From: Gammaproteobacteria bacterium
GTDB lineage: Bacteria; Pseudomonadota; Gammaproteobacteria; Thiohalospirales; Thiohalospiraceae
Direction of reading: 5' to 3'
Length of the DNA stretch: 64,000 bases
NCBI GenBank assembly: GCA_024277595.1
Contig: JAJRUV010000090.1
Span: 547-64,546 of the forward strand
Every line of letters begins with the position of its first letter. The first letter of the stretch is position 1. Position numbers and translations under genes: made by a program. The notes beneath the pieces are model-generated. The model saw only the letters and a program-made list of their open reading frames with translations. It made no database searches and was not told the origin of the DNA. Below are positions 3,162-61,289 of the stretch, piece by piece.

Positions 3162-4043
3162 TCAAATATTCCGTAACGCGGCGATACGTTGTTCCAAGGG
3201 TGGATGAGACATGAAAAGGGCTTTCAGTCCATGCCCGATATGCCCTGAAATGCCGAAAGCGGCCATCTGATCAGGGAGTTGGTTTTCACCCGCACCACGC
3301 TGCAGGGCCTGGAGGGCGGCGATCATTTTTTCCCTGTTTTCCAGCCGCGCGGCACCGGCATCGGCGCGGAACTCACGTTGCCGACTGAACCACATCACGA
3401 TGATGGTAGCCAGGATACCCAATACCAGTTCAGCAACAATAGTGGTTATCCAGTAAGCAGGGCCATAGCCGTGCTCGTTTTTGAATATCACCCGATCTAC
3501 CGTATGGCCGACCACTCTGGAGATGAAGATAACGAAAGTGTTGACCACCCCCTGGATCAGGGCCAAGGTGATCATGTCTCCGTTGGCGACATGGCTAACC
3601 TCATGGGCCAGTACTGCCTCGACGGCATCTTTGTCCATTACATTCAGCAAACCGGTACTTACCGCTACCAGGGCGTTATTCCGGTTGGCTCCAGTGGCGA
3701 AGGCATTGGGTTCTGGTGAATCATAGAGTGCTACCTCCGGCATGCCGATACCGGCCTTGCCGGCCTGTTTCTGCACTGTTTCCAGCAACCACCGTTCGGT
3801 AGGATTGGATGGCTGCTGTATTACCTGGGCGCCAACCATACGCTTGGCGCTCCATTTGGAGATTAGCAGTGAGATTATCGAACCCGCAAAACCGAATACG
3901 GCAGCAAAAATCAGCAGACTGGTATAATTGAGTCCCCCTTGTGCATCGGTGATGCGATCGATTCCCAACAGGCGCAGGACGATGTTCAGTACCATGATAA
4001 CCGCAAGGTTGGTTACCAAAAACAGAAATACACGCTTCATCAT
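3162..4043 (-). CDS. htpX: Zinc metalloprotease HtpX (M48B)
   Basis: 293 aa. N-terminus [34 protein letters not shown] zinc motif, four TM segments, C-terminal HPPLEQRI. Confidence 0.93.
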
Positions 4044-4240: not shown

Positions 4241-4392
4241 GTAACTATTCAGCATAGTTGAAAATAAACAAGTAACTGTTCAGATTGTCCCTGAAATTTG
4301 TCAGTTCAAGGCGAAAAATGTGAGTTTACACGGGTAAATGATCATTTTTTAACGCAGGAATAGCAGACTTCAGGGGTGAGCTGAATAATTAC
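4241..4392 (+). mobile_element. MITE copy A, long form (152 bp)
   Basis: GTAACTATTCAGC...GCTGAATAATTAC termini. About 90% identical to copies at 24782 and 47221. The flanking 8-mer AAATCAGG is repeated (4232-4239 and 4393-4400), with one extra G at the left junction. Confidence 0.9.
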
Positions 4393-13313: not shown

Positions 13314-13375
13314 GTAACTATTCAGCATAGCTGACAATGAGCAGGTAACTGTTCAGGTTACCCCTGAACAGTTAC
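13314..13375 (+). mobile_element. MITE copy B, 62-bp mini form
   Basis: GTAACTATTCAGC + 18-nt spacer + perfect palindrome GTAACTGTTCAGG-TTAC-CCTGAACAGTTAC. The flanking 8-mers CTATGATT and CTGCGATT match 6/8, a degraded TSD. It sits between the DUF3570 stop and the apbE start. Confidence 0.8.
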
Positions 13376-15717: not shown

Positions 15718-15773
15718 TTCAGGGGCAATCTTGAGTAGTTACTGCAATAATTTACAATTCGCTGAATAGTTAC
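15718..15773 (-). mobile_element. MITE fragment C (left arm only, reverse orientation)
   Basis: TTCAGGGGCAATCTTGAGTAGTTAC-N18-GCTGAATAGTTAC is the reverse complement of the left TIR, spacer, internal repeat and start of the core. No TSD. Confidence 0.7.
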
Positions 15774-22980: not shown

Positions 22981-23490
22981 TCACTCTTCCGAAATAACGG
23001 CGATATCGTCCGGTTTGGGATAATGCTCCAGCATGGATTTAGACAATATCCCCTGACGGGCCTGGTTGATGGCTTCGGACTCCATGATTACCAGAGCAAG
23101 TACCGTCAACATCGTGGGTAGCATCGCCACACCTCCGAATGCGTAGTGCTGGGGTCTGGGTTCGCCACCGGAGAGCAGCAAAATGGTTACAATGGCTGCG
23201 GCCATAACGCCCAGCATAATAATGAAGAACATACTGCGCCTGGCGCATAGTTGCCAATGGCTTTTCACAAACCACGGATCCGTTGCAAGAGAGCACCGGG
23301 CGCGGATGATAAGATAACCGAGAATAGCCACGGAGATGCCGGGAATAACAAGTAGCAGGTAGGGGTAGGATGTCGCCATTCCTATCAGGCTGACAAACAG
23401 CAGAATATGGTTGACTATCAGGTTAATCAAAAAGATTTCATGCGGATGCCGCGCTTTAACGCGCTCTTGTTCTGAAATATCGAATCTCAT
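22981..23490 (-). CDS. Hypothetical 4-TM membrane protein
   Basis: Start set at MRFDISEQERVKARH (ATG 23490). The ORF-track N-terminal extension runs into the MITE flank. Four hydrophobic helices. Confidence 0.55.
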   Translation of the reverse strand: MRFDISEQERVKARHPHEIFLINLIVNHILLFVSLIGMATSYPYLLLVIPGISVAILGYLIIRARCSLATDPWFVKSHWQLCARRSMFFIIMLGVMAAAIVTILLLSGGEPRPQHYAFGGVAMLPTMLTVLALVIMESEAINQARQGILSKSMLEHYPKPDDIAVISEE

Positions 23491-23602
23491 AGTGAGTCGG
23501 CCCCGGGTAGTTGCGGTAGAAGGACAACGTCTTGCGTCCGGCGAAGGATACCGCAACACCCCCTCAGATGTCACCTGTGACGGGTACTTTCAAAGGATTT
23601 TC

Positions 23603-23671
23603 GTAACTATTCAGCATAGTTGAAAATGAGTATGTAACTGTTCAGATTTCAGGGGTGAGCTGAATAGTTAC
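23603..23671 (+). mobile_element. MITE copy D, 69-bp internal-deletion derivative with perfect 8-bp TSD
   Basis: Both TIRs are intact. The core hairpin is missing, with the junction at the shared GATT. GGATTTTC occurs at 23595-23602 and 23672-23679. Confidence 0.9.
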
Positions 23672-23700
23672 GGATTTTCCTGTTCGGGAATACCCCTGGT

Positions 23701-24561
23701 CTATAACAGCAACGGGCCTACACTGTTTTTCAGCTTTTGCAGCGCGCTTTTCTCCAACTGGCGGATTCGTTCTGCGGAGACATGGTATTTTTCTGCCAGC
23801 TGATGAAGGGTTGTTTTTTGCTCACTGAGCCAGCGCTGTACAACAATATCCCGGCTGCGTTCATCTAGAGCGGAGAGTGCCTGCTGGAGCTTGTCGCTGT
23901 TAAAGGCGGCGTTCTCCAGCTGCTCAACTTCCTGGGCGGGATCAGGTCGCAGATCGCTGAGATAGGTTGCCGGTGCCTGATGCGCAGTTTCACTGTCATC
24001 ACTCTCCCTGATATCAAAAGAGGTATCCCGGCTGCTCATGCGCTGTTCCATCTCAAGCACGGTTTTGCGGGAAACACCGAGATCCTTGGCGACAGCATCG
24101 AGCTCTTCACTGTTAAACCACCCCAGCCGCTTTTTAGAGCTGCGCAGATTGAAAAACAGTTTCCGCTGCGCCTTGGTGGTTGCTACCTTGGCGATGCGCC
24201 AGTTACGCAGGATGTACTCATGCATTTCTGCCCGAATCCAGTGAACCGCGAAAGAGACCAGGCGTACACCCACTGCGGGGTCAAAGCGCTTTACCGCCTT
24301 CATCAGGCCGATATTTCCCTCCTGAATGAGGTCAGCCTCAGGTAGTCCATAGCCGCTATAGCCGCGGGCAATACGCGCAACAAAACGCAAATGAGCCGTT
24401 ACCAGCTGACGGGCAGCATCCAGGTCATTCTTTTCCCGGAGACGCTGGGCGAGACTTTTTTCCTCCGCTGCGCTCAGCATGGGGATCGCGTTTATTTTTG
24501 TCTTGTATGCTTCAAGACTGCCGGTGGTAACAGCAGGTAATGAGTGGTAACTGTTTGCCAT
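23701..24561 (-). CDS. rpoH: RNA polymerase sigma-32 (heat-shock sigma factor)
   Basis: 286 aa. RpoB-box QRKLFFNLR, region 2 DLIQEGNIGLMKAVKRFD, region 4 LHQLAEKYHVSAERIRQLE. Confidence 0.95.
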   Translation of the reverse strand: MANSYHSLPAVTTGSLEAYKTKINAIPMLSAAEEKSLAQRLREKNDLDAARQLVTAHLRFVARIARGYSGYGLPEADLIQEGNIGLMKAVKRFDPAVGVRLVSFAVHWIRAEMHEYILRNWRIAKVATTKAQRKLFFNLRSSKKRLGWFNSEELDAVAKDLGVSRKTVLEMEQRMSSRDTSFDIRESDDSETAHQAPATYLSDLRPDPAQEVEQLENAAFNSDKLQQALSALDERSRDIVVQRWLSEQKTTLHQLAEKYHVSAERIRQLEKSALQKLKNSVGPLLL

Positions 24562-24598
24562 GATTACATTCCCTATATTTGCTGGGTATATGTTGATA

Positions 24599-24625
24599 TT
24601 AGCACTCTAATGGTGAGAGTGCTAA
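24599..24625 (-). promoter_or_regulatory. CIRCE element (HrcA operator) in the rpoH leader
   Basis: TTAGCACTC-TAATGGTGA-GAGTGCTAA is an exact match to both 9-nt arms of the CIRCE consensus with a 9-nt spacer. It lies 38 nt upstream of the rpoH ATG. Confidence 0.85.
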
Positions 24626-24664
24626 ACAGAACCAGAGTTCCCTGAACGACAAATCAATCATCTT

Positions 24665-24693
24665 TTATAAGGGAATATAGTCCGGATAAACAA
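24665..24693 (-). promoter_or_regulatory. Candidate sigma70 promoter of rpoH
   Basis: The minus strand reads TTGTTT-N17-TTATAA, about 40 nt upstream of CIRCE. This is a hexamer match only. Confidence 0.3.
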
Positions 24694-24703
24694 AAAAACA
24701 ATG

Positions 24704-24781
24704 GTAACTATTCAACTCACCCCTGATTTGCCCGATTATGGCGTCAAAAATGTTCATTTACACTTGTAAACTGCGCATTTT
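24704..24781 (-). mobile_element. MITE copy E1 (older, reverse orientation), left part, interrupted by E2
   Basis: GTAACTATTCAACTCACCCCTGATTTGCCCG... aligns at roughly 75-80% with the reverse complement of the right TIR plus half of the core. The alignment resumes at 24934 after copy E2. Confidence 0.8.
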
Positions 24782-24933
24782 GTAACTATTCAGCATAGTT
24801 GAAAATGAGTATGTAACTGTTCAGATTGCCCCTGAAATTTGTCAGTTCAAGGCGAAAAATGCAAGTTTACATGGGTAAATGACCATTTTTTAACGCAGAA
24901 ATGGCAGATTTCAGGGGTAAGCTGAATAATTAC
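24782..24933 (+). mobile_element. MITE copy E2, long form (152 bp), inserted into E1
   Basis: Full-length and high identity to copies A and H. The flanking 8-mers CGCATTTT (24774-24781) and CACATTTT (24934-24941) match 7/8. Confidence 0.9.
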
Positions 24934-24984
24934 CACATTTTTTCCTTGTCCTTGAACAAACCAGGAGCAATACCGAACAGTTAC
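24934..24984 (-). mobile_element. MITE copy E1, right part
   Basis: CACATTTTTTCCTTGTCCTTGAAC...CCGAACAGTTAC aligns with the rest of the reverse-oriented core and ends at the internal-repeat terminus CTGAACAGTTAC (short-form architecture). Confidence 0.65.
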
Positions 24985-25031
24985 AAACGGGTTGATATTT
25001 TTATAACCGGTGTGTGCGTACCATGCTCGGG

Positions 25032-25059
25032 TTGAAATCAATCCGGGTTGTCCTCATAT
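25032..25059 (+). promoter_or_regulatory. Sigma32-type heat-shock promoter upstream of hsp20
   Basis: TTGAAA-N14-CCTCATAT compares with the sigma32 consensus CTTGAAA-N13-15-CCCCATNT. It lies 44 nt upstream of the hsp20 ATG. Confidence 0.6.
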
Positions 25060-25102
25060 ATCACAGCAGGTTACTACATGAATATCATGAGGAGGAAATA
25101 CG

Positions 25103-25543
25103 ATGAATGTAATTCACTATCAGCCCTGGAACACATTGGATCAAATGCGCAGGGAGATGGACAAGGTATTTGCAAGCTACGCGGATCGGGATGACGGAAA
25201 CAGCGTTGTGGCAGCTGACTGGTTGCCGGCAGTTGATGTGCGGGAAGATGCGGAGTGCTTTGTCATTACCGCTGATGTGCCCGGTGTCGAGCCAAAGGAT
25301 ATTGATATCAACATGGAAAAAGGAGTGTTGACCCTCAGTGGTGAAAAACAGGTTGAGTCGGAAGAAGAGCTGAAGAACTACAAACGTGTTGAACGGGCAC
25401 GGGGGAGTTTTTATCGCCGCTTTACCCTGCCGGAAAGTGCCGATGCAGAAAGGATCAGTGCCAAATTTACCAACGGTGTGCTGGAGATAGTGATTCCCAA
25501 GCAGGAAAGGGTACAACCTCGCAAGATTGCTATCGAGAGCTAA
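25103..25543 (+). CDS. Small heat-shock protein (Hsp20/alpha-crystallin family, IbpA-like)
   Basis: 146 aa. RBS GAGGAGG. Alpha-crystallin domain WLPAVDVRED...FVITADVPGV...GVLTLSGEK...FTLPESAD...NGVLEIVIPK. Confidence 0.92.
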   Translation: MNVIHYQPWNTLDQMRREMDKVFASYADRDDGNSVVAADWLPAVDVREDAECFVITADVPGVEPKDIDINMEKGVLTLSGEKQVESEEELKNYKRVERARGSFYRRFTLPESADAERISAKFTNGVLEIVIPKQERVQPRKIAIES

Positions 25544-25621
25544 GCGGCTAAATCCTTGACGGGATATGCGATACCCCAACTGGTTGCGCTGTTGTTGCAA
25601 GGAATGGAGATCTGTTTGTAT

Positions 25622-25660
25622 GCCGCCTGGAAGCTCTTTCCAGGCGGCCTTTCTTGTTTT
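25622..25660 (+). terminator. Rho-independent terminator of hsp20
   Basis: GCCGCCTGGAA-loop-TTCCAGGCGGC (11-bp stem) followed by CTTTCTTGTTTT. Confidence 0.8.
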
Positions 25661-25700
25661 CCGATATTTCCTTGTGTGCCGGAAATACCGTAATCAATCG

Positions 25701-25728
25701 GGAACTGACGATCCTTTAACATGTCATT
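25701..25728 (+). promoter_or_regulatory. Candidate sigmaE-type promoter upstream of degP-like gene
   Basis: GGAACT-N17-TCATT compares with the E. coli sigmaE pattern GGAACTT-N16-TCAAA. The match is weak; the argument is that degP is a classical sigmaE target. Confidence 0.3.
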
Positions 25729-25800
25729 ATACCCAAGCTACCTGGAGATGCAGTTTGGGTATATTGGGGTCAGCAACCACTATCCAGAAGTACTGAAAAA

Positions 25801-27168
25801 ATGAAAAAAATACTCAACTACTCTTGTTTTCTGGCGTTGTTTGTATTGGTCGTCAGCCTTGGTTACGCCGCACTGCCTGCTGTCGACGGTAGTGGCAAAA
25901 GCCTGCCGACACTGGCGCCGATGCTGGAGAAAGCCACCCCGGCAGTGGTCAATATCGCCACGCGCGGGCGGGTACGGATACGAGAAAATCCGTTATTCAA
26001 TGATCCTTTTTTCGGACGCTTTTTTGATCTTCCACAGCAACCCAGGGAACGGATTACCCAGAGCCTGGGTTCAGGGGTTGTCGTCGATGCAGACAATGGC
26101 TACATCCTCACCAATAATCACGTCATAGATAGGGCTGAGGAGATTGAAGTAACCTTGCGTGACGGCCGCACACGGAAGGCGAAACTGGTGGGCAGCGATC
26201 TTGCTACCGATATTGCTGTTATTCAGATGAACGCAGAGGGACTGACGGCGCTGCCGTTGGCAAATTCTGATCAGTTGCGGGTGGGGGACTTTGTGATTGC
26301 CATCGGTAATCCATTCGGACTTGGGCAGACCGTTACTTCCGGTATCGTCAGTGCTTTGGGTCGAACCGGGCTTGGTATTGAAGGGTATGAGGATTTTATC
26401 CAGACCGATGCTTCCATCAACCCGGGAAATTCCGGTGGTGCGCTGGTGAATCTTCGTGGTGAACTGGTTGGTATCAATACGGCAATATTTTCCCAAAACG
26501 GTGGTAATATTGGTATCGGTTTTGCCATTCCTATCAATATGGCACATGAGGTAATGGAGCAATTGATCGCCCATGGCCGTGTGGAGCGGGGTATGCTGGG
26601 CGTACAGGTTCAGGATCTGACTCTGGAGCTGGCTCAGGCATTTTCTATTCCTGAACAGCGGGGTGTTATTATAAGCGCTGTTGTGCCAGGATCGCCGGCA
26701 GAGAAAGCCGGATTGAAGATTGGTGATATCATTATTGCGATCAATGATCGGGCTGTTGATGATAGTGCCGATGTGCGCAATACAATCGGTCTGATACGCG
26801 TTGGTAGTCGAGTTGAGTTAAAGATATTGCGGGATGGAAAAGAGCGTATCATTCGGGCCACTATTGGTGAAGAGCAGATAGCTGAACTCAAGGGTGAAAA
26901 ACTGCACCCCTACCTGGAAGGAGCTATACTTGGAGCCATTGGCGAGAACTCTTCCCTCTATAATGGTGTCAGAAGAGTTGTGGTGGTGAATGTTGCGCCG
27001 GGCAGCCGGGCTTGGCAAGCCGGCTTGCGAAAGGGTGATATCATTACCTCCGCCAATCGTCGGCCGGTGAGCACCCTGAAACAGCTTCGCAAGGCGGTTA
27101 ACAGGAAAGATGCCTTGCTGCTGAATATCCAGCGCGGGAAAACAGCCCTGTTTTTGCTGTTGCGTTGA
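25801..27168 (+). CDS. Periplasmic serine endoprotease DegP/DegQ (HtrA family)
   Basis: 455 aa. Signal peptide, trypsin-like domain with TNNHV, D...DIAV and GNSGGAL triad motifs, two PDZ domains. Confidence 0.93.
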   Translation: MKKILNYSCFLALFVLVVSLGYAALPAVDGSGKSLPTLAPMLEKATPAVVNIATRGRVRIRENPLFNDPFFGRFFDLPQQPRERITQSLGSGVVVDADNGYILTNNHVIDRAEEIEVTLRDGRTRKAKLVGSDLATDIAVIQMNAEGLTALPLANSDQLRVGDFVIAIGNPFGLGQTVTSGIVSALGRTGLGIEGYEDFIQTDASINPGNSGGALVNLRGELVGINTAIFSQNGGNIGIGFAIPINMAHEVMEQLIAHGRVERGMLGVQVQDLTLELAQAFSIPEQRGVIISAVVPGSPAEKAGLKIGDIIIAINDRAVDDSADVRNTIGLIRVGSRVELKILRDGKERIIRATIGEEQIAELKGEKLHPYLEGAILGAIGENSSLYNGVRRVVVVNVAPGSRAWQAGLRKGDIITSANRRPVSTLKQLRKAVNRKDALLLNIQRGKTALFLLLR

Positions 27169-28376: not shown

Positions 28377-28497
28377 GCAACTGTTCAGATTGCCCCTGAA
28401 ATTCGTCAGCTCAAGGCGAAAAATGTGAGTTTACACGGGTAAATGATCATTTTTTAACGCAGAAATGGCGGATTTCAGGGGTGAGCTGAATAGTTAC
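28377..28497 (+). mobile_element. MITE copy F, short form (~121 bp)
   Basis: It starts at the internal-repeat terminus GCAACTGTTCAG, has a full core and ends GCTGAATAGTTAC. Very high identity to copy H. No TSD detected. Confidence 0.85.
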
Positions 28498-35205: not shown

Positions 35206-35249
35206 CCTGAACAGTTACATGCTCATTTTCAACTATGCTGAATAGTTAC
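35206..35249 (-). mobile_element. MITE fragment G (44 bp: left TIR + spacer + internal repeat, reverse orientation)
   Basis: CCTGAACAGTTAC-ATGCTCATTTTCAACTAT-GCTGAATAGTTAC is the reverse complement of the left arm of the long form. No TSD. Confidence 0.8.
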
Positions 35250-45676: not shown

Positions 45677-47215
45677 ATGATAGAAAACAGCTATATAAGA
45701 ACATTCTGTATTACCTCATTACTGTCTGGTCTGCTGGTGATGAACGGCTGCGCTACCAACCCGGTAACCGGCAAAAGCGAACTGCGGCTGGTCTCACAGA
45801 CGGAAGAGATCAAGATTGGGCAGAAAAGCTATCTCCCCACCCGGCAGTCGCAAGGCGGCGAGTATCGTCTTGATCCCGAACTCACCCGTTACGTTAATGA
45901 AGTGGGACAGAAACTGGCCAGGGTAAGTGATCGATCGGATCTGCCGTATGAATTTGTAGTCCTCAACAATTCGGTGCCCAATGCCTGGGCGCTACCTGGC
46001 GGCAAGATTGCGATCAACCGGGGATTGCTGCTGGAACTCGGCTCCGAGGCCGAGCTTGCGGCTGTACTTGGGCATGAGATCGTGCACGCGGCAGCCCGCC
46101 ATGGCGCACGTTCGATGGAACGAGGTATGCTGTTACAACTGGGGATAATGGCTGCCAGCGTAGCCACCGCCGGTGAAAAACATGCTGATTTGATGATGGG
46201 GGCAGCCGTTATCGGAAGCCAGTTGGCCAATACCAGATATGGCCGCAACGCCGAACTGGAGTCCGACAGATATGGCATGAAATATATGGCCCGGGCTGGC
46301 TATAACCCACAGGAAGCAGTGACGCTGCAGCAAACCTTTGTAAGGTTATCAAAGATGCGTGAAACCAACTGGCTGGAGGGGCTGTTCGCCTCTCACCCGC
46401 CATCGCAGGAACGGGTCGATGCCAACAGAAAATATGCCGCCACACTCCCCAAGGGGCTGAAAACAGGACGGCAGGAGTATCTGCAGCATATCGCCACCCT
46501 GAAATCCACCCAACAGGCCTATGCTGACTATGACGCTGGCCGCAAGGCGCTGTCTGAAGGCGATGCCGGTAGAGCGCTGACGCTGGCCAGGAAGGCGATC
46601 CGGCAGGAGAACCGGGAAGCACTGTATTATGGCCTGCAAGGGGAAGCCCTGCTGAAAATGGGGAACCCCGGGCAAGCAAAATCCCTGTTTGATGAGGCAA
46701 TCAGACGAAACGATGCCTATTTCGCCTTTTATCTGCAGCGCGGCCTGGCCAGGCAGAAAATGGCAGACCAGGCCGGCGCTCGTCAGGATCTCGAGCTAAG
46801 CGTGAAACTGCTGCCAACAGCAATAGCGCACTATACCCTCGGCACCATGGCGCTCAATGCACATAACGAAGAGAGCGCCATAACACACTACCGTGCGGCA
46901 GCCGCCTCTGGCTCCCCCCTGGGTCAGCAGGCTGCTATATCCCTCGCTACACTGGAACTGCCACGGAATCCAGATAAATATATCTCGGCACATGGCAAGC
47001 CGGACAATAAGGGCCGCCTCTTTGTCCAGGTAAGAAATCGTGCTCCGATTGCCGTTAGCCGGGTTGTGCTGGGCATCCAGTACCGTACCGGGGAAATGGA
47101 TAAAGTTCCCGTCCGTGACACCATTCCTGCCGGAAAAACAGTGACCCTGCGTCTGCCAAATCCGGGCGATAAAGTGCAACACATAAAGGTAGTTCGTGCT
47201 GCTCCCGCTCAATAA
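45677..47215 (+). CDS. M48-family zinc metalloprotease with TPR domain (lipoprotein)
   Basis: Lipobox LLVMNGC, HEIVHAAARH zinc motif, C-terminal TPR-like repeats. Confidence 0.85.
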   Translation: MIENSYIRTFCITSLLSGLLVMNGCATNPVTGKSELRLVSQTEEIKIGQKSYLPTRQSQGGEYRLDPELTRYVNEVGQKLARVSDRSDLPYEFVVLNNSVPNAWALPGGKIAINRGLLLELGSEAELAAVLGHEIVHAAARHGARSMERGMLLQLGIMAASVATAGEKHADLMMGAAVIGSQLANTRYGRNAELESDRYGMKYMARAGYNPQEAVTLQQTFVRLSKMRETNWLEGLFASHPPSQERVDANRKYAATLPKGLKTGRQEYLQHIATLKSTQQAYADYDAGRKALSEGDAGRALTLARKAIRQENREALYYGLQGEALLKMGNPGQAKSLFDEAIRRNDAYFAFYLQRGLARQKMADQAGARQDLELSVKLLPTAIAHYTLGTMALNAHNEESAITHYRAAAASGSPLGQQAAISLATLELPRNPDKYISAHGKPDNKGRLFVQVRNRAPIAVSRVVLGIQYRTGEMDKVPVRDTIPAGKTVTLRLPNPGDKVQHIKVVRAAPAQ

Positions 47216-47220
47216 TCGAT

Positions 47221-47371
47221 GTAACTATTCAGCATAGTTGAAAATGAGTATGTAACTGTTCAGATTGCCCCTGAAATTCGTCAATTCAAGGCGAAAATGT
47301 AAGTTTACACGGGTAAATGATCATTTTTTAACGCAGAAATGGCGGATTTCAGGGGTGAGCTGAATAGTTAC
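47221..47371 (+). mobile_element. MITE copy H, long form (151 bp), perfect 8-bp TSD
   Basis: GTAACTATTCAGC...GCTGAATAGTTAC. TAATCGAT occurs at 47213-47220 and 47372-47379. It fills the whole gap between two convergent genes. Confidence 0.95.
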
Positions 47372-55485: not shown

Positions 55486-58316
<2,831 letters not shown>

Positions 58317-58347
58317 TGTACCCTGTCTCCCGAAAGCCAACTGCCCC

Positions 58348-61141: not shown

Positions 61142-61289
61142 TTACTCAGCGAGTAGCCAATATTGCCGGTAACTGCTCAGATTGCCCCTGACATTCGTCA
61201 GTTCAAGGCAAAAAACGGGAGTTTACATGTGTAAATGACCATTTTTTAACGCGAAAATGGCGGATTTCAGGGGTGAGCTGAGTAGTTAC
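61142..61289 (+). mobile_element. MITE copy I, long form with degraded left arm
   Basis: The core and right TIR are well conserved (...GGCGGATTTCAGGGGTGAGCTGAGTAGTTAC). The left arm is diverged (TTACTCAGCGAGTAGCC...). No TSD. Confidence 0.8.

Follow-up and report, generated by a model that had tools for sequence, protein, structure and literature searches.

Introduction

The inverted repeat CIRCE, operator of the repressor HrcA, is said to have been placed before rpoH in some beta- and gammaproteobacteria by Permina and Gelfand in 2003, and we know of no hrcA in Escherichia coli. For Geobacter sulfurreducens, a perfect CIRCE was predicted upstream of rpoH at about -50 from the start codon (Rodionov et al. 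2004, Table 8, PMC545781), in a study that refers the reader to Permina & Gelfand 2003 where beta- and gammaproteobacteria are concerned. The wiring of HrcA to rpoH was already predicted about twenty years ago, and a sequence-only reading of the present locus was right to recall a precedent for it. HrcA in turn depends on GroESL (PMC7053576). On the promoter side, rpoH P3 of E. coli and Pseudomonas aeruginosa is a heat-inducible promoter dependent on sigmaE/AlgU (PMC13104619), and the sigmaE consensus comprises GGAACTT and TCAAA (PMC1312014). Here, we analyze a locus that appears to combine the two systems.

A CIRCE element upstream of rpoH

The window, by which we mean the whole 64-kb stretch of DNA analyzed, contains the 27-nt palindrome TTAGCACTCTAATGGTGAGAGTGCTAA, which agrees with the CIRCE consensus at 18/18 positions and has the exact 9-nt spacer (Table 1). 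On the forward strand, where the spacer is TAATGGTGA, it reads TTAGCACTC-TAATGGTGA-GAGTGCTAA; in the orientation of rpoH (minus strand), it reads TTAGCACTC TCACCATTA GAGTGCTAA. No second match was found in the 64 kb even at ≤3 mismatches, and dinucleotide-preserving shuffles gave a mean of 0.01 chance matches, with a match in one of 100 shuffles. The perfect CIRCE announced by the sequence-only reading was, thus, borne out as the sole match in the window. It is promoter-proximal, upstream of a heat-shock gene; its proposed position before a true rpoH stands, while the distance to the ATG, given earlier as 38 nt, was counted as 37 nt.

The spacer in the rpoH orientation (TCACCATTA, 24608-24616) is also the exact reverse complement of that in a Methylothermaceae metagenome-assembled genome (MAG; TAATGGTGA, L050 2947-2955), as if the loop of the palindrome had been inverted, with chance also possible given the T.A constraints at both spacer ends.

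Table 1. Features of the rpoH locus and its surroundings; coordinates are those of the window.
Feature	Coordinates	Strand	Basis or remark
CIRCE inverted repeat TTAGCACTC-N9-GAGTGCTAA (predicted HrcA operator)	24599..24625	.	0 mismatches, unique in window
rpoH (sigma-32), 286 aa	23701..24561	minus	TIGR02392, 399 bits vs cut-off 323
Likely ribosome-binding site of rpoH, AGGGAA	24569..24574	minus	sequence inspection
SigmaE-type -35, GGAACTC (consensus GGAACTT)	24635..24641	minus	GAAC in register at 34/48 sites vs 0/48 mirrored
SigmaE-type -10, TCTCA, 16-nt spacer from -35	24614..24618	minus	spacer position 11 is A at 37/48 sites
Candidate sigma70 extended -10, TGCTAATAT (TGn + TAAnAT), CIRCE right arm + 3 nt	24596..24604	minus	conservation alone
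Sigma70 candidate of the sequence-only reading, TTGTTT (24693-24688)-N17-TTATAA (24670-24665)	within 24665..24701	minus	weak, two-sequence comparison
Alternative sigma70 candidate, TTGTTT (24701-24696)-N16-TATATT (24679-24674)	within 24665..24701	minus	weak, two-sequence comparison
hsp20-family small heat-shock protein gene, divergent from rpoH	25103..25543	plus	small-HSP models
Sigma32-type promoter of hsp20, TTGAAA (25032-25037)-N14-CCTCATAT (25052-25059)	25032..25059	plus	sequence inspection
DegP/DegQ-family protease gene	25801-27168	plus	beyond hsp20
MITE/REP-like element, ~1.5-2 copies filling the rpoH-hsp20 spacer	24694..24984	.	motif matches; outside operator
Repeat copies in the window	4241-4392, 13314-13375, 15762-15773, 23603-23671, 24694-24984, 28377-28497, 35207-35249, 47221-47371, 61169-61289		

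Conservation across gammaproteobacterial rpoH loci

We scanned one genome per GTDB species with the RpoH protein and obtained 80 gammaproteobacterial loci, among which that of an uncultured Chromatiales MAG was the best match (80% identity). Counting CIRCE at ≤4 mismatches, we found it in 47 of the 80 loci, each from a different gammaproteobacterial species (16 perfect sites, 19 with one mismatch). All 47 precede rpoH at a distance of 27-202 nt, and the ~0.5 Mb of flanking DNA covered around the 80 loci contains no CIRCE outside this position. Together with the window they form a set of 48 sites, used below, which represent fewer independent events than the counts suggest, the carriers being phylogenetically related. 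The carriers include Chromatiales-like MAGs, Thiohalomonas, Thioalkalivibrio, Thiohalobacter, Ca. Thiodiazotropha and Methylothermaceae, and further Competibacteraceae, Woeseiaceae, Steroidobacteraceae, Xanthomonadales, Rheinheimera and Pseudoalteromonas. Loci without CIRCE include those of Halomonadaceae, Legionella, Idiomarina, Aeromonas, Tolumonas and Methylophaga. At the Xanthomonadales/Nevskiales sites (L044, L065, L066 and L068, ~2912-2957 each), both arms are altered jointly to TTAGCAGTC-N9-GACTGCTAA, which suggests a shift in the half-site specificity of HrcA.

Some CIRCE-less lineages retain relics of the element, with 6-13 mismatches, whose register relative to a sigmaE-type promoter is unchanged. 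In Spiribacter (L042 ~2922-2948), the left arm TTtGCACTC is kept and the right arm is degenerate; a gammaproteobacterial MAG (L055 ~341-370) carries TTGGCAC-N12-GTGCTAA with a 1-nt deletion. We read these relics as decay where selection was lost. In one locus of the related contigs described below (L149), the gene upstream of rpoH is co-directional with it, so that rpoH is the only possible CIRCE target there. The 47 orthologous sites among 80 loci, their exclusive placement at rpoH, the relics and the L149 layout strongly support the view that the CIRCE in the window is a genuine, selected operator belonging to rpoH.

Predicted promoter elements in register with CIRCE

The 48 sites were anchored on CIRCE and read in the rpoH direction, with the mirrored positions serving as comparison. 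With the first base of CIRCE as reference, a sigmaE-type -35 (GGAACTT) occupies positions -16 to -10, and GAAC is missing from this register at 14 of the 48 sites. The CIRCE spacer begins T-N-A, the A at position 11 being far more frequent than its mirrored counterpart, T at position 15 (37/48 vs 9/48). Together, these features spell GGAACTT-N16-TCTnA, in line with the sigmaE consensus, and a full, strict sigmaE-type promoter stands in the exact register at 22/48. The window itself has GGAACTC-N16-TCTCA (24641-24614, minus), the only strict sigmaE-type match on either strand of the 64 kb, in which both the -35 and the -10 deviate from the optimum; the CIRCE left arm supplies the first two bases of TCTCA and the start of the spacer the other three. 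Among CIRCE-less loci, 15 of 33 carry a sigmaE-type promoter upstream of rpoH, where the background would give 0.02 per 260 nt, and the E. coli rpoH locus has GAACTT-N16-TCTGA (L081 416-442). A comparison of the ~50 open reading frames (ORFs) of the window with NCBIfam found no rpoE among them.

A second element adjoins the other arm. Directly 3' of CIRCE, 'nAT' occurs at 38/48 sites, compared to 3/48 at the mirrored positions, and the right arm with its flank reads TGCTAAnAT across sites, a possible sigma70 extended -10. The arm variant TTGGCA, nearer than the consensus arm to the -35 consensus TTGACA, was counted 20 times in the left arm and three times in the right. Two control CIRCE sites (n = 2), located before groES (L088) and hrcA (L180), lack both the GGAACTT register and nAT.

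Neighboring genes and a dispersed repeat

The spacer between rpoH and the divergent hsp20 gene measures 541 bp. We take TTGAAA-N14-CCTCATAT before hsp20 to be a good sigma32-type promoter; the sequence-only reading had placed such a promoter ~400 bp from CIRCE, and we found it at ~410 bp. In the closest relative (L001), degQ rather than hsp20 is the divergent neighbor of rpoH. Further stress-proteostasis genes in the window are htpX and that of a BepA-like M48 protease (3162-4043, minus, and 45677-47215, plus, respectively). At a distance, ligA (56283-58317), encoding an NAD-dependent DNA ligase, contains a single in-frame TAG at 57765-57767 with the frame intact for ~180 codons beyond; presumably the affected position is a conserved glutamate in relatives, judged by E. 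coli LigA, and the TAG could be a sequencing error, the mark of a pseudogene or a readthrough codon.

Most of the rpoH-hsp20 spacer outside the operator is filled with copies of a repeat. We considered these sequences as regulator sites and rejected them, as they belong to a dispersed, MITE/REP-like element: its motif has 24 matches in the window where 0.5 are expected. The element is ~150 bp long and intergenic, with terminal inverted repeats GTAACTGTTCAGATTGCCCCTGAAAT ... ATTTCAGGGGTGAGCTGAATAGTTAC and a duplicated (31-nt) left end. Copies lie to either side of rpoH, at 23603-23671 and 24694-24984. An Rfam scan of 23400-25900 returned only a spurious, sub-threshold match to a plant miRNA (MIR8007), located on the repeat hairpin. 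The repeat also occurs in a Chromatiaceae MAG (SZUA-76, L004) and in 96 metagenome stretches. Some copies sit inside heat-shock operons, in the groES/groEL gap of L088 (1580-1700) and the grpE/dnaK gap of L163 (1267-1415).

HrcA and chaperone operons in related contigs

Neither hrcA nor groESL, dnaK or grpE was found among the ~50 ORFs of the window compared with NCBIfam, nor in the 80 rpoH loci when searched by phmmer with approximate probe sequences. Exact look-ups of the RpoH, Hsp20 and CcoO proteins matched no entry in the collections searched. The conserved core of the repeat was used as a lineage tag, and it was the scan of a metagenome collection with this core that yielded the 96 stretches; the link from these contigs to the source organism is a shared mobile repeat of 85-92% identity, which could cross lineages. 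Contig L163 has a repeat copy with 87% identity to one of the window copies, and on it the 3' part of hrcA (TIGR00331 positions 261-337, E = 4e-21) precedes grpE and then dnaK. L088 has a perfect CIRCE 86 nt before groES-groEL. In L149, where RpoH identity is 60% and ccoNO is close by, as it is in the window, rpoH is preceded by a perfect CIRCE that has GGAACTT in register.

Homologues of the L163 HrcA fragment were found in Thiogranum, Chromatiaceae and Steroidobacterales MAGs, and a related contig, L180, has a perfect CIRCE followed by hrcA-grpE-dnaK-dnaJ. Via the HrcA homologues, we found no single assembly holding both hrcA and CIRCE-rpoH, the contigs L178-L180 stemming from other samples. 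Taken together, the data support the existence of an HrcA/CIRCE regulon in the repeat-sharing clade. On L180 (9375-10432) and on L178 and L179 (~10001), hrcA and its neighbors are fragmented, most likely through frameshift errors in long-read assemblies. The best 120 HrcA matches listed span only 76-144 aa, a shortness that probably has two sources, this fragmentation and the truncation of genes where short contigs end.

Proposed regulation of rpoH and alternatives

We propose, with a probability of about 0.7, that HrcA controls rpoH transcription through the 27-bp palindrome, which would be a functional CIRCE fused in register to one or more rpoH promoters. Since the sigmaE-type -35/-10 overlaps the left arm and TAAnAT overlaps the right arm, HrcA most likely would occlude the promoter(s) rather than act within the leader. 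The sigmaE-type -10, lying inside the left arm and spacer, would set a start site within the palindrome, and the right arm plus three bases (TGCTAATAT) might serve as a sigma70 extended -10. At low temperature, a bound HrcA dimer would block RNA polymerase at the rpoH promoter; when unfolded proteins titrate GroEL, HrcA activity would be lost and rpoH transcription would rise, driven by sigmaE (under envelope stress or extreme heat), by sigma70 or by both. We infer that HrcA binds here, that the promoters are active and start as described, and that the source genome carries hrcA and rpoE; the GroEL dependence of rpoH control would follow the example of B. subtilis and Chlamydia (PMC7053576). 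Of the wiring put forward by the sequence-only reading, the HrcA-rpoH connection remains the best reading, given the sites conserved in 47/80 loci and the presence of hrcA and CIRCE-groESL in the repeat-sharing clade, while the leader architecture attached to it is probably incorrect.

That architecture would place a sigma70 promoter ~40-70 nt upstream of CIRCE, leaving the operator in the transcribed leader with HrcA as an elongation roadblock, and we consider it unlikely, although it could coexist with the overlapping promoters. Suitable hexamers exist: the TTGTTT-N17-TTATAA pair of the earlier reading is present on the minus strand, as is TTGTTT-N16-TATATT (Table 1), of which TATATT and a TTGT(A/T)T -35 are kept in L001, and upstream sigma70 promoters also occur at rpoH of E. 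coli and P. aeruginosa (PMC13104619). However, TTATAA is replaced by CTATGG in L001, and neither pair was reported by a simple sigma-70 scan. Across the 48 sites, no element further upstream is conserved, whereas those overlapping CIRCE are; it is this conserved register that speaks against a position of CIRCE in the leader. An upstream sigma70 promoter may still act in addition to the CIRCE-overlapping ones.

CIRCE has been reported to influence mRNA stability in some bacteria, and the palindrome might mainly form an RNA stem-loop in the rpoH 5' UTR that governs the stability or translation of the mRNA, HrcA playing a minor part or none. The predicted leader fold does contain a 9-10 bp hairpin, the common arm variants (G2 with T24; G26 with T0) keep G-U pairs in the sense RNA, and the mirrored variants, which would break pairing, are rare. 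We nevertheless regard this reading as improbable. The arms hold the exact HrcA consensus, beyond mere complementarity, the z-score of the leader fold is only -2.0 and hrcA is present in the clade. The overlapping promoter also accounts for the asymmetries, with TTGGCA nearer to TTGACA and T24 being the first base of TAAnAT, and the start site inside the palindrome implied by the sigmaE register would leave the hairpin incompletely transcribed.

Control of the divergent hsp20 (or hsp20-degQ) instead of rpoH, suggested by a heat-shock gene sharing the intergenic region with CIRCE, is scarcely credible, as is a non-functional relic or chance palindrome, because CIRCE lies 477 nt from the hsp20 ATG with repeat insertions between, hsp20 has its own sigma32-type promoter, CIRCE tracks rpoH in 47 loci with varied upstream neighbors (including the co-directional one in L149), and the site has 0 mismatches, compared to 6-13 in relics, against a chance expectation of 0.01.

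Beyond the single locus, the promoter-occlusion reading invites a more tentative extension, to which we give somewhat less than even odds: the rpoH control region in a large part of Gammaproteobacteria would be an ancestral composite, with the HrcA operator built into a sigmaE (possibly also sigma70 extended -10) promoter to form a three-regulator AND-gate that was lost with HrcA in some lineages. If so, sigma32 synthesis would need both sigmaE signaling (envelope stress or extreme heat) and inactivation of HrcA via GroEL titration. Enterobacterales, Halomonadaceae and Legionella would then have lost the operator along with HrcA and been left with a bare P3-type promoter, with some relics remaining.

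Comparison with known systems

A literature search, with key Xylella and Xanthomonas work outside its scope, returned no paper linking an HrcA operator and a sigmaE promoter at rpoH, and the fixed register that ties CIRCE to the sigmaE-type promoter and to the TAAnAT flank may be new. What the present analysis adds is the breadth of conservation, the operator-on-promoter architecture and a register that can be tested. Sigma32 control as known from E. coli, mainly post-transcriptional and with no HrcA input, would not be general for Gammaproteobacteria; judging from the conserved layout, rpoH transcription in many lineages appears to be gated by a GroEL-sensing repressor at a promoter used by sigmaE.

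Three described systems come closest. The CIRCE/HrcA pairs of groESL and hrcA-grpE-dnaKJ (the B. subtilis paradigm and proteobacterial examples) share with the window site the 9-N9-9 consensus, the promoter-proximal position and, presumably, the GroEL-dependent repressor activity (PMC7053576). They differ in their target, which is a chaperone operon rather than a sigma factor gene, and the groES (L088) and hrcA (L180) sites each directly follow an ordinary sigma70 -10, whereas the CIRCE of the window is interleaved with a sigmaE-type promoter. The predicted CIRCE-rpoH pair of Geobacter sulfurreducens has the same HrcA-to-rpoH wiring in a different lineage, the window belonging to an uncultured Chromatiales-like one, and we found no fixed sigmaE-promoter register described in that report. 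Lastly, rpoH P3 of E. coli and P. aeruginosa has the same promoter layout (E. coli GAACTT-N16-TCTGA, window GGAACTC-N16-TCTCA), but the E. coli promoter has no CIRCE, the corresponding stretch differing at 12/18 positions, whereas in the window a predicted HrcA operator fills the spacer and -10.
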